A DNA stretch of 64,000 bases from Escherichia coli (GTDB taxonomy: Bacteria > Pseudomonadota > Gammaproteobacteria > Enterobacterales > Enterobacteriaceae), in NCBI RefSeq assembly GCF_003790525.1, contig NZ_CP033635.1, one strand, 5' to 3'. How positions within the stretch are numbered: position 1 is the first letter of the stretch; every line of letters begins with the position of its first letter. The position numbers and the translations under genes are program-made. This document shows, one piece after another, positions 20,455 to 23,741 of this stretch. The notes below the pieces were generated by a model, which did no database searches, had not been told where the DNA came from, and worked only from the letters and a program-made list of their open reading frames with translations.

Positions 20455-21234
20455 ATGGCATTTAAGATCTGGCAAATTGGTTTGCATTTACAACAGCAAG
20501 AAGCGGTAGCGGTTGCGATCGTGCGGGGCGCAAAAGAATGCTTTTTGCAACGCTGGTGGCGGTTGCCGCTGGAGAATGACATTATCAAAGATGGGCGGAT
20601 TGTTGATGCGCAGCGGCTGGCTAACACGTTGTTACCGTGGAGCCGCGAACTGCCGCAGCGTCATCACATTATGTTGGCGTTTCCCGCCAGTCGCACATTA
20701 CAGCGGTCATTTCCGCGCCCGTCGATGTCCCTTGGTGAGCGGGAGCAAACGGCCTGGCTGTCCGGGACGATGGCCCGTGAACTGGATATGGATCCGGACT
20801 CCCTGCGCTTCGATTACAGCGAAGACTCACTCAGTCCCGCCTATAACGTGACTGCCGCGCAAAGCAAAGAGCTGGCAACGCTGCTTACTCTGGCAGAAAG
20901 GTTGCGTGTTCATGTTAGCGCGATCACCCCGGATGCCAGTGCATTACAGCGATTCCTGCCTTTTTTACCTTCTCATCAGCAATGTCTGGCCTGGCGTGAT
21001 AACGAACAGTGGCTGTGGGCGACGCGCTATCGCTGGGGGCGCAAACTGGCGGTGGGGATGACTAGCGCGAAGGAGCTGGCGGCAGCGTTATCCGTTGATC
21101 CCGAAAGCGTCGCGCTATGTGGCGAAGGCGGATTTGATCCCTGGGAGGCCGTTTCTGTTCGTCAGCCGCCGCTACCGCCGCCAGGTGGAGACTTTGCCAT
21201 CGCGCTGGGGCTGGCGCTAGGGAAGGCGAACTGA
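20455..21234 (+). CDS. hofM: DNA utilization / competence pseudopilus assembly protein HofM (PilM-like)
   Basis: ORF-track 268 aa (GTG start) trimmed to ATG at 20455 giving 259 aa MAFKIWQIGLHL... Confidence 0.88.
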   Translation: MAFKIWQIGLHLQQQEAVAVAIVRGAKECFLQRWWRLPLENDIIKDGRIVDAQRLANTLLPWSRELPQRHHIMLAFPASRTLQRSFPRPSMSLGEREQTAWLSGTMARELDMDPDSLRFDYSEDSLSPAYNVTAAQSKELATLLTLAERLRVHVSAITPDASALQRFLPFLPSHQQCLAWRDNEQWLWATRYRWGRKLAVGMTSAKELAAALSVDPESVALCGEGGFDPWEAVSVRQPPLPPPGGDFAIALGLALGKAN

Positions 21235-21773
21235 TGAACCCGCCAATTAATTTTTTGCCCTGGCGACAGCAACGCCGGACCGCTTTTCTGCGTTTCTGGT
21301 TGCTGATGTTCGTTGCGCCTCTGCTGCTGGCCGTCGGGATTACGCTAATAATGCGTCTGACAAGCAACGCCGAAGCACGCGTAAACGCCGTTTTGCTTCA
21401 GGCGGAACAACAACTCGCTCGCAGCTTACAGATAACGAAACCACGTTTGCTGGAGCAACAGCAGTTACGCGAACAGCGTTTGCAAAGGCAGCGCCAGCGA
21501 CAATTTACCCGCGACTGGCAATCTGCGCTGGAAGCACTGGCGGCGCTTTTACCCGAGCACGCCTGGCTGACAACGATAAGCTGGCAGCAGGGAACGCTGG
21601 AGATCAAGGGGCTGACAACAAGCATTACCGCGTTAAACGCACTAGAAACGTCACTCCGCCAGGATGCATCTTTTCATCTCAATCAGCGGGGGGCCACGCA
21701 GCAGGATGCGCAGGGACGCTGGCAATTTGAGTATCAGTTAACAAGGAAGGTTAGCGATGGACATGCTCTTTGA
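21234..21773 (+). CDS. hofN: DNA utilization protein HofN (PilN-like)
   Basis: 179 aa; start overlaps hofM stop by 1 nt. Confidence 0.9.
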   Translation: MNPPINFLPWRQQRRTAFLRFWLLMFVAPLLLAVGITLIMRLTSNAEARVNAVLLQAEQQLARSLQITKPRLLEQQQLREQRLQRQRQRQFTRDWQSALEALAALLPEHAWLTTISWQQGTLEIKGLTTSITALNALETSLRQDASFHLNQRGATQQDAQGRWQFEYQLTRKVSDGHAL

Positions 21774-22197
21774 CTGGTGGTTCGCCGCATCACCCCGCCT
21801 CCGCCAGCTTTGCTGGGCATTCTGGTTGATGATGTTAGTTACGCTCATTTTTCTGTCATCGACACACCAGGAAGAGAGCGACGCATTAATTCGACTACGG
21901 GCGAGTCATCACCAGCAGTGGGCCGCACTGTATCGCCTGGTAGACACCACTTCCTTCAGCGAAGAAAAAACGCTGCCCTTTTCGCCACTGGATTTTCAGT
22001 TGCCCGGCGCGCAACTGGTTTCCTGGCATCCATCCGCGCAGGGAGGTGAGTTGGCGTTGAAAACGCTGTGGGAAGCAGTGCCGTCGGCATTTACACGGCT
22101 GGCAGAGCGCAACGTCAGCGTGAGCCGTTTTTCGTTAAGCGTGGAAGGTGATGATCTTTTGTTCACGCTACAACTGGAGACGCCGCATGAGGGGTAA
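21757..22197 (+). CDS. hofO: DNA utilization protein HofO (PilO-like)
   Basis: 146 aa; 17 nt overlap with hofN. Confidence 0.88.
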   Translation: MDMLFDWWFAASPRLRQLCWAFWLMMLVTLIFLSSTHQEESDALIRLRASHHQQWAALYRLVDTTSFSEEKTLPFSPLDFQLPGAQLVSWHPSAQGGELALKTLWEAVPSAFTRLAERNVSVSRFSLSVEGDDLLFTLQLETPHEG

Positions 22198-22591
22198 ACG
22201 CTGGTTGTTGGCAGGTATTGCATTGTGCCTTTTAACCGGTATGCGTGACCCTTTTAAACCGCCGGAAGATCTATGCCGGATTAGCGAACTTAGCCAGTGG
22301 CGCTATCAGGGGATAGTAGGGCGAGGCGAGCGCATCATCGGTGTAATAAAAGACGGGCAAAAGAAATGGCGACGGGTGCAGCAAAACGATGTGCTGGAAA
22401 ACGGCTGGACAATTTTACAGCTGACGCCAGACGCACTAACGCTGGGAACCGGAACAAACTGCGAACCGCCACAATGGTTGTGGCAACGGCAAGGAGATAC
22501 AAATGAAGCAATGGATAGCCGCACTACTGTTGATGCTGATACCCGGCGTACAGGCGGCAAAGCCGCAAAAAGTGACACTGATGGTGGATGA
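22187..22591 (+). CDS. hofP: DNA utilization protein HofP (PilP-like lipoprotein)
   Basis: ORF-track 147 aa trimmed to ATG at 22187 giving 134 aa MRGKRWLLAGIALCLLTGMRDPF...; overlaps hofO by 11 nt. Confidence 0.85.
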   Translation: MRGKRWLLAGIALCLLTGMRDPFKPPEDLCRISELSQWRYQGIVGRGERIIGVIKDGQKKWRRVQQNDVLENGWTILQLTPDALTLGTGTNCEPPQWLWQRQGDTNEAMDSRTTVDADTRRTGGKAAKSDTDGG

Positions 22592-23741
22592 CGTTCCGGT
22601 AGCTCAGGTGTTGCAGGCGCTGGCTGAACAGGAGAAGTTGAACCTGGTGGTGTCGCCAGACGTCAGCGGTACGGTGTCGTTACATCTAACAGATGTTCCC
22701 TGGAAGCAGGCACTACAAACTGTAGTGAAAAGCGCCGGACTGATAACGCGCCAGGAGGGCAACATTCTCTCAGTGCATTCCATTGCCTGGCAGAATGACA
22801 ATATCGCCCGTCAGGAAGCGGAGCAGGCGCGGGCGCAGGCAAATCTGCCGCTGGAAAATCGCAATATTACTCTGCAATACGCCGACGCCGGAGAGCTGGC
22901 GAAAGCTGGGGAGAAGCTACTGAGTGCCAAAGGGAGTATGACCGTCGATAAACGCACCAATCGCCTTTTGCTGCGAGATAACAAAACGGCGTTAAGCGCC
23001 CTTGAACAGTGGGTAGCGCAAATGGATCTGCCGGTCGGGCAAGTTGAGCTGTCGGCGCATATTGTCACCATTAATGAAAAAAGTTTGCGTGAGTTAGGCG
23101 TGAAATGGACGCTGGCCGATGCGCAACAAGCTGGTGGCGTTGGGCAAGTCACCACGCTTGGCAGCGACCTCTCCGTAGCGACGGCGACAACGCATGTCGG
23201 TTTTAACATTGGGCGTATCAACGGACGTTTGCTGGATCTTGAGCTTTCTGCGCTCGAACAAAAACAGCAGCTGGATATTATCGCCAGTCCGCGTCTGCTG
23301 GCCTCACATCTTCAGCCTGCCAGCATTAAACAGGGGAGCGAAATTCCATATCAGGTTTCCAGCGGGGAAAGTGGCGCGACGTCGGTGGAATTTAAAGAGG
23401 CCGTCCTGGGGATGGAGGTCACGCCCACGGTGTTACAAAAAGGTCGCATCCGGCTGAAATTACACATCAGCCAGAACGTTCCGGGGCAGGTGCTACAGCA
23501 GGCCGATGGCGAAGTGCTGGCGATTGATAAGCAGGAGATCGAAACGCAGGTCGAGGTCAAAAGCGGAGAAACGTTGGCGCTGGGCGGCATTTTTACCCGT
23601 AAAAATAAATCGGGTCAGGATAGCGTACCGTTGCTTGGCGACATTCCCTGGTTCGGGCAATTATTTCGTCATGACGGAAAAGAAGATGAACGACGCGAGT
23701 TAGTGGTGTTTATCACGCCACGACTGGTTTCCAGTGAGTAA
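22503..23741 (+). CDS. hofQ: Outer-membrane secretin HofQ (PilQ/ComE-like)
   Basis: 412 aa with signal peptide; strong AAGGAG SD 7 nt upstream of ATG; secretin C-terminal domain. Confidence 0.93.
   Translation: MKQWIAALLLMLIPGVQAAKPQKVTLMVDDVPVAQVLQALAEQEKLNLVVSPDVSGTVSLHLTDVPWKQALQTVVKSAGLITRQEGNILSVHSIAWQNDNIARQEAEQARAQANLPLENRNITLQYADAGELAKAGEKLLSAKGSMTVDKRTNRLLLRDNKTALSALEQWVAQMDLPVGQVELSAHIVTINEKSLRELGVKWTLADAQQAGGVGQVTTLGSDLSVATATTHVGFNIGRINGRLLDLELSALEQKQQLDIIASPRLLASHLQPASIKQGSEIPYQVSSGESGATSVEFKEAVLGMEVTPTVLQKGRIRLKLHISQNVPGQVLQQADGEVLAIDKQEIETQVEVKSGETLALGGIFTRKNKSGQDSVPLLGDIPWFGQLFRHDGKEDERRELVVFITPRLVSSE

Follow-up and report, generated by a model that had tools for sequence, protein, structure and literature searches.

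In a survey of 338 prokaryotic genomes, none of the 715 candidate co-directional overlaps exceeding 60 nucleotides (nt) in length was judged real, the longest real case named being holD/rimI, with 32–56 nt (Palleja, Harrington and Bork 2008, PMC2478687). In Escherichia coli, reinitiation is nearly abolished at ~20 nt and reduced by 80–100% at 38 nt, and the phase series −8, −11, −14 etc. is the commoner one for long overlaps (Huber et al. 2023, PMC10666635). Here we analyze the junction of hofP and hofQ, where two genes share 89 nt, in a 64,000-nt stretch of the E. coli chromosome (assembly GCF_003790525.1, contig NZ_CP033635.1), further referred to as the window. RefSeq lists this overlap already; our contribution is comparative evidence for its conservation and dual coding. 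We consider it likely that the shared stretch is genuinely dual-coding and that the hofP frame yields a translated tail constrained in composition, not in sequence.

Like holD/rimI, hofP/hofQ is a same-strand overlap in which the upstream protein's C-terminus and the downstream protein's N-terminus share their coding sequence; it is likewise conserved across enterobacterial genera, with a genus-specific length. Unlike holD/rimI, it spans 89 nt (59–140 nt across the family) and carries a measurable codon-choice signature of the second frame. The systems with a 4-nt ATGA stop–start are similar in that ATGA is present at the E. coli hofQ start and provides the hofP stop in six loci; the 89-nt overlap also falls into the phase series −8, −11, −14, as do the commoner long overlaps (PMC10666635). 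Unlike in these systems, the TGA is one base out of reach for the E. coli hofP frame, whose stop comes 86 nt downstream; coupling of this type cannot operate here, because reinitiation is nearly lost at much shorter distances. The text supplementary files of PMC2478687 contain no mention of hofP/hofQ.

The hofP frame is open from ATG 22187 to TGA 22589..22591 and encodes 134 amino acids (aa); the coding sequence 22187..22591, as all features below unless stated otherwise, lies on the plus strand. The hofQ gene (22503..23741) encodes a 412-aa secretin with STN, Secretin_N, and Secretin domains. The dual-coding stretch, 22503..22591, specifies HofQ residues 1–29 and a part of residue 30 in one frame, and HofP residues 106–134 with the stop in the other, each hofP codon consisting of base 3 of one hofQ codon and bases 1–2 of the next. 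The hofP stop is formed by T of HofQ Asp29 (GAT) and GA of Asp30 (GAC), within the conserved V-D-D/E motif. The Shine–Dalgarno (SD) sequence of hofQ, AAGGAG (22491..22496), is separated by 6 nt from the start codon ATG (22503..22505) and lies inside the hofP codons Q102-G103-D104; GGAG or AAGGA is seen at the same place in all loci considered below. Followed by A22506, the hofQ ATG makes up a latent ATGA; its TGA (22504..22506) is not in the reading frame of E. coli hofP. The signal peptide of HofQ, MKQWIAALLLMLIPGVQA (22503..22556, probable cleavage after VQA), is read from the translation and has a signal-peptide-like counterpart in every homologue. The HofP tail, DTNEAMDSRTTVDADTRRTGGKAAKSDTDGG (residues 104–134, 22496..22588), is rich in Gly, Ala, Arg, and Asp. 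The preliminary description of this DNA, made from the sequence alone, had listed the 89-nt overlap, the strong SD with ATG 22503, and the last 29 HofP codons lying over the HofQ signal-peptide region, and all of these are borne out by the reading frames and by RefSeq. The RefSeq/PGAP coordinates of both genes are identical in strain SMS-3-5, which is 100% identical to the window here, and in K-12 MG1655. A 601-nt query around the junction is 100% identical to NC_010498.1 (SMS-3-5) and finds at least 95% identity in 5425 of 5426 complete E. coli genomes.

Scanning a single genome for each species yielded 54 loci (Escherichia, Salmonella, Citrobacter, Enterobacter, Lelliottia, Trabulsiella, Leclercia, and others); the peptide patterns used missed Klebsiella and more distant Enterobacterales, and the outgroups are unlabelled metagenome contigs. 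The overlap is 86–98 nt long in nearly all of these loci, 80 nt in two, 140 nt in one, and 4 nt (ATGA) in L049 and L056. The length of HofP is 133–137 aa in Escherichia, Salmonella, and Citrobacter, and that of HofQ is 411–416 aa in nearly all complete loci (424 aa in L055); hence, both proteins keep their length among orthologues, which is how Palleja et al. (2008) recognize a genuine long overlap. The loci form approximately 18 clusters differing at >45% of same-amino-acid codons, hence near-independent at synonymous sites, and the open reading frame (ORF) of the tail is kept in 15 of 16 such Enterobacteriaceae lineages. A profile search of the whole library gave 75 diverse full-length HofP representatives, of which 62 extend at least 24 residues beyond the invariant Cys92 and 12 at most 17.

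Among the metagenome outgroups, five have long overlaps (89, 74, 74, 62, and 59 nt), and six have short ones or none: the overlap measures 4 nt in four loci and 1 or 4 nt in L068, according to which start is taken, and is missing from L064. ATGA is the actual hofP stop in L049, L056, L060, L065, L066, and L067. In the neighbor-joining tree computed for mature HofQ, L049 and L056 are placed within clades of long-overlap loci, and deeper branches are mixed. The conserved upstream stop, which would have indicated an earlier end of HofP as the preliminary description had proposed, is thus confined to a minority of homologues (L049, L056, L060, and L064–L068), the first two of them nested as just described. 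The spacer between the conserved GGA codon and the hofQ start is 7 or 10 nt in long-overlap species and 8 nt in L049 and L056, so that the two states differ by 1–2 nt in an often A-rich SD–ATG spacer; judging by these spacers, small indels may cause switching between the long overlap and the 4-nt ATGA.

ORF length, considered as evidence for dual coding, was rejected. When the synonymous codons of hofQ are shuffled with the HofQ protein fixed (2000 shuffles per locus), for most loci the hofP frame meets its first stop at a median position of 89 nt, equal to the observed length, and for the window's own sequence the probability of a simulated overlap at least as long as the observed one is 0.72. 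This is because the signal-peptide codons (CTG, ATN, GTN, GCN) cannot form stops in the hofP frame. Only 2–5 codon pairs per locus are able to create such a stop, and a stop first becomes readily possible at the conserved V-D-D/E motif in mature HofQ (GTG GAT GAN), the hofP stop falling on the GAT-GA codon pair there in 43 of 50 loci. As soon as hofP has no stop before 22503, therefore, an overlap of about 89 nt follows automatically; in a single genome, the overlap length is what is expected by chance and proves nothing alone. Beyond chance are the persistence of the overlap in different lineages and the bias in codon choice within it. The absence of stops within the overlap is partly true by construction, since the overlap is defined by the first stop, and was recast as the number of lineages reaching V-D-D. 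This is 15 of 16, compared to approximately 7 expected from summed per-lineage probabilities (p from ~1e-6 to ~4e-3, dependent on the model). The excess hints, in a model-dependent way, that the length or the termination site also matters. HofQ Asp29 is encoded by GAT in 43 of 50 loci, compared to a frequency of ~0.65 for this codon; this is only suggestive of conservation of the codon that supplies the stop.

The codon-choice analysis shows strong avoidance of T at hofQ third positions (T3), which are the hofP first positions in the overlap. Among 16 cluster representatives, T3 is seen in 12/435 codons (2.8%) of the overlap and in 1255/6131 (20.5%) of the gene body (Fisher p=1.6e-26); for the window's hofQ, the counts are 0/27 in the overlap and 83/382 elsewhere. 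In cluster-weighted counts of the residues that T would create in the hofP frame, Cys (22.4 expected, 0 observed), Tyr (13.6 and 0.6), and stop codons (11.5 and 0) are strongly avoided, Ser is avoided more weakly (17.6 and 9.1), and Leu, Phe, and Trp are also low. Since T is nearly absent from hofQ third positions, Cys, Tyr, and early stops are all missing from the HofP tail. We also performed 3000 within-gene synonymous shuffles of the 16 representatives, which give 20.0±3.6 Cys (minimum 7) and 13.2±3.1 Tyr (minimum 4) in the tail, compared to zero observed for both; the summed hydropathy of the tail is −637, compared to −404±36 in the shuffles, making it more hydrophilic than all 3000. First-position choice shows the same trend: Leu codons TTR make 8% in the overlap and 21% elsewhere, and Ser codons TCN, 12% and 44%; the preference for CTN over TTR and for AGY over TCN makes the tail less hydrophobic. 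Further, AGA and AGG constitute 55% of Arg codons in the overlap and 8% in the rest of hofQ (cluster-weighted N of ~16), which could be either a rare-codon effect of the 5'-end or an effect of the hofP frame, where xAG is Lys, Glu, or Gln.

This signature is specific for the overlap. In the same contexts, the observed-to-expected ratio is 0.8–1.4 in the rest of hofQ, and 0.95–1.25 for the first 29 codons of hofM, hofN, hofO, and hofP from the same genomes, compared to 0.33 for hofQ; hofN, hofO, and hofP of this control also begin with hydrophobic stretches. In eight hofQ genes where hofP ends at or before the hofQ start, T3 is 43/216 (19.9%), and 8 Cys, 13 Phe, 2 Trp, and 8 stops occur in the equivalent frame. 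By contrast, T3 is 9/111 in five distant loci with a long overlap, and this frame has no Cys, Phe, Trp, or stop there (long-overlap vs. non-overlap hofQ, Fisher p=1.5e-11). The synonymous sites of the overlap are not frozen, as the between-cluster synonymous codon difference is 0.46 there and 0.52 elsewhere: G, A, and C interchange, and T alone is excluded. Of the two possibilities that the preliminary description had left open, a genuine long overlap is hence favored by the tail ORF in 15 of 16 lineages and by the avoidance of Cys, Tyr, and stops, which is gone where hofP ends at ATGA.

The tail-conservation check proposed in that description gives a divided answer. The open frame and the composition are constrained; residue identity is not conserved, and residue-level conservation of the kind measured by the ratio of nonsynonymous to synonymous substitution rates (dN/dS) was rejected, the tail being less conserved than HofQ over the same bases. 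In nine lineages with the 89-nt overlap, over the bases encoding HofQ 19–30 the identity is 0.44 for the tail and 0.70 for HofQ. Selection is nonetheless visible on both frames: on hofQ, from the signal peptide and from variability ordered by its codon positions, and on hofP, from T3 depletion, avoidance of Cys, Tyr, and stops, and hydrophilicity. From the order of variability and the low tail identity it follows that hofQ dictates the sequence, and hofP only vetoes certain outcomes.

Several observations weigh against a dual-coding stretch with a translated, constrained tail. The mean pairwise identity in the nine lineages is 0.38 for the tail and 0.48 for HofQ residues 1–30, and nucleotide variability follows the hofQ codon positions, 3 (0.46) > 1 (0.41) > 2 (0.33). 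In every avoided context T precedes G or A, whereas T preceding C or T is tolerated, so that the avoidance can be described as that of T before a purine, which leaves room for a cause at the RNA level. Tail-less HofP exists and arose repeatedly, hence the tail is dispensable in at least some lineages; the independence of lineages is approximate; and the hof operon is poorly expressed. The literature search yielded no ribosome profiling or mass spectrometry data and no direct protein evidence for the tail, and no paper on the hofP/hofQ junction was found in the literature searched.

The simplest competing explanation is passive read-through: the signal-peptide codons cannot form stops in the hofP frame, and the tail is neutral, removed, or not made at all, with no selection involved. 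The shuffled median of 89 nt, the few codon pairs per locus able to make a stop, the predicted disorder and poor sequence conservation of the tail, and the known tail-less homologues all agree with it. It leaves unexplained, however, the approximately sevenfold lower T3, the lack of Cys and Tyr where 20 and 13 are expected, the hydrophilicity exceeding that of every shuffle, the absence of bias in non-overlap hofQ genes, and the lineages reaching the V-D-D stop at about twice the summed expectation (15 of 16 vs. ~7); we regard it as unlikely. A cause acting on the mRNA would be avoidance of U before purines in the first ~30 hofQ codons, related to initiation efficiency, stability, or spurious NUG starts and not to the HofP protein. 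The T-before-purine form of the avoided contexts suits this explanation, as does the excess of rare AGR codons for Arg, a bias often associated with gene 5'-ends. Nevertheless, the same hofQ region is not depleted when hofP ends at ATGA, the 5'-ends of hofM, hofN, hofO, and hofP show no depletion, no significant RNA structure is found in the region (z=−1.3, SD unpaired), and the first-position choices for Leu and Ser also lower the tail hydrophobicity, making an RNA-level constraint improbable, even more so than neutral read-through.

The other two rivals concern the frames themselves. A 90-aa antisense ORF at 22306..22578 (minus strand) is open in E. coli and spans the junction, and a hofQ third-position T with A as the next base would give TAA or TAG in its frame. 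This frame is interrupted by TGA stops inside the overlap in 11 of 16 lineages and is not conserved, for which it was rejected as the source of the constraint; neither can it account for the strongest signal, T before G (Cys), which would produce only Gln or His codons on the antisense strand, so its probability is negligible. The overlap would be reduced to merely 8–11 nt if hofQ actually started at ATG 22581 or GTG 22584, both existing in the hofQ frame, and an automatic gene caller did pick the GTG equivalent in the metagenome locus L057, obtaining a 20-nt overlap. Such starts were rejected, since the whole signal peptide of an outer-membrane secretin would be lost; moreover, ATG or GTG at the position equivalent to 22503, with a GGAG-type SD 7–10 nt upstream, is conserved in ~50 species-level loci, and the following 18–20 residues are signal-peptide-like in all of them, although their sequence drifts. 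When the upstream ATG is taken in L057, the result is MRWTSLLFLLLPLMVVAA and, once more, an overlap of 89 nt. A downstream start is thus very improbable, and the hofQ start at 22503 is sound, with independent sequence support from the SD, the conserved start codon, and the signal peptide. The L057 contig itself (2320–2408) illustrates the difference between the gene call at GTG 2389 (389 aa, 20-nt overlap) and ATG 2320 (412 aa, 89 nt); the truncating call is probably a systematic artefact of the overlap penalties of gene callers.

For the dual-coding reading, we propose the following sequence of events. As hofP has no stop before the hofQ start, its ribosomes would read through the hofQ SD and ATG in a frame displaced by one base, append ~31 disordered residues rich in Gly, Ala, Arg, and Asp to the PilP-like beta domain, and terminate at the TGA arising from the Val-Asp-Asp/Glu codons (GTG GAT GAN) at the start of mature HofQ; hofQ would be initiated separately, at its own strong SD. 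This arrangement appears to have persisted through the Escherichia–Salmonella–Citrobacter–Enterobacter radiation, with the hofP frame filtering the synonymous sites of hofQ. The tail would be translated often enough for selection to see it, being kept free of Cys, aromatic residues, and early stops, and harmless and hydrophilic in composition. Translation of the tail is inferred from these patterns, and the tail may be processed afterwards. It probably has no specific binding function, and its repeated loss argues against any essential specific function.

A further possibility, which we hold only tentatively and consider less likely than not to be correct, is that the length of the tail or the termination point is itself selected, e.g., as a flexible periplasmic tether to the HofQ ring. 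In a variant that shares the same doubt, the tail would serve as ribosome spacing, with hofP termination, and the reinitiation at internal ATG or GTG codons that would give a signal-less secretin, kept away from the hofQ initiation region. If selection of length or termination were true, this would be a functionally maintained dual-coding region well beyond the reported 60-nt limit, and a natural system for how two frames share one signal-peptide sequence.

The preliminary description had also seen the 1–17 nt overlaps in the hofMNOPQ set as consistent with translational coupling. This remark is valid for the short junctions, measured as 1, 17, and 11 nt, and not for hofP/hofQ. Coupling requires the upstream stop at approximately −8 to +10 nt of the downstream start, and the hofP stop lies 86 nt past the hofQ start; termination–reinitiation coupling at this junction was therefore rejected for too great a distance (PMC10666635). 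The distance is within this range at hofM/hofN (1 nt) and at hofP/hofQ of L049 and L056 (4 nt). The folding analysis cited above also gives no support to coupling through an RNA hairpin that would mask the hofQ SD.

The HofP protein matches Pfam HofP (DUF2531, PF10748) over its full length (E=7.8e-79, 262 bits vs. the cutoff of 24; residues 4–134 aligned to positions 2–132 of the 132-position profile), and the profile itself covers the tail. In the AlphaFold2 model based on a 75-sequence alignment, the folded core is a beta domain similar to PilP and GspC-HR (~residues 20–100, 22244..22486), supported also by Foldseek. The mean predicted local distance difference test score (pLDDT) in 10-residue blocks is 91–96 over residues 31–100, with the last strand at 96–100, and drops to 61, 47, 59, and 64 from residue 101; residues 110–121 are below 50, and no secondary structure is seen in the tail, which is hence predicted to be a disordered Gly/Ala/Arg/Asp-rich extension of a PilP-like domain. 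The top PDB matches in Foldseek are PilP of M. xanthus, N. meningitidis, and P. aeruginosa, and HR domains of GspC/PulC; they include 3jc8_Pa (E=2.3e-4), 2ivw, 2y4x, 2lc4, and 3oss_C (target-normalised template-modelling score 0.71).

Similar to PilP of the type IVa pilus, the modelled HofP has a beta-sandwich HR-like domain, and its gene lies between a PilO-like gene and the secretin gene (hofM-hofN-hofO-hofP-hofQ), the order being the same in the metagenome loci. Unlike PilP, it lacks, on inspection of the sequence, a conserved lipobox Cys, and matches PF10748 with no PilP family profile at E≤0.01. It differs from both PilP and the GspC HR domain of type II secretion in the invariant pair Cys30/Cys92 and in the disordered C-terminal tail encoded over the secretin signal peptide. 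Cys30 and Cys92 are the only invariant cysteines in the 75-sequence alignment, and this pair may be a reason why an additional Cys in a periplasmic tail would be harmful. Cys14 of E. coli HofP is not conserved and sits in I-A-L-C, a poor lipobox, while in most homologues A-x-A/G precedes the conserved RDPF, resembling a signal peptidase I site (region 22187–22255 of the window); accordingly, HofP probably is not a lipoprotein but a soluble protein of the periplasm. Conservation of HofP residues 101–103 (R-Q-G) over the hofQ SD may owe more to the SD than to the protein.

Individual loci show several deviations. In Enterobacter sp. ENT03 (L029:3308–3447), both Asp codons are GAC, and hofP continues until the overlap reaches 140 nt. 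In L055 (3269–3348), the HofQ signal peptide is followed by a Lys/Glu-rich insertion; hofP ends there at AAT-AA, so that the overlap is 80 nt. In Escherichia albertii NBRC 107761 (L043:3001–3405), hofP has an in-frame stop at codon 34 (between CRIS and LTQW), the remaining frame including the tail being open; a recent pseudogene or a nonsense mutation confined to this strain is the probable explanation. In Citrobacter koseri NCTC10786 (L007:3300–3780), hofQ is frameshifted: it reads MKRWIAAALIAVMPAVQAGKSAKRDAGGG followed by a stop, entering the hofP-tail frame at a GGAAAA run, and the secretin continues in the other two frames, which indicates either a pseudogene or homopolymer sequencing errors. 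Some assemblies contain HofP–HofQ fusion ORFs (proteins P0003, P0009, P0041, and P0087) passing from the tail frame to the HofQ frame, e.g., ...GGKAAKVTLMVDDVPV, with the switch at a CAAAAAG run near 22562–22568 of the window. P0003 represents 72 sequences, all from Logan read assemblies and with upstream frame errors as well; the fusions most likely result from homopolymer sequencing errors and are not biological.

The upstream genes of the operon, mapped from the RefSeq annotation of L001 and the ORF list, are hofM (20455..21234), overlapping hofN by 1 nt; hofN (PilN family, 21234..21773), overlapping hofO by 17 nt; and hofO (Pfam HofO, 21757..22197), overlapping hofP by 11 nt. The overlaps hofN/hofO (21757–21773) and hofO/hofP (22187–22197) belong to the same phase series, 8+3k, as the 89-nt hofP/hofQ overlap; hofM/hofN is the only one of the stop–start type.

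The hofP/hofQ pair is thus a further, unusually long example of a known phenomenon, of modest biological importance, and the understanding of DNA uptake or of the Hof machinery is unchanged by it. It provides a counter-example, in the best-studied bacterium, to the view that no co-directional overlap longer than 60 nt is real, and matters for annotation, as gene callers penalise long co-directional overlaps and, as in L057, automatic callers cut the HofQ signal peptide to avoid one; the near-absence of T at third codon positions of the downstream gene is a simple signature that can be checked. Recoding or engineering of the first 30 codons of hofQ also alters the C-terminus of HofP. The pair also illustrates how an extension born from a frameshift can be long-lived, the synonymous sites of the host gene being tuned to keep it harmless.

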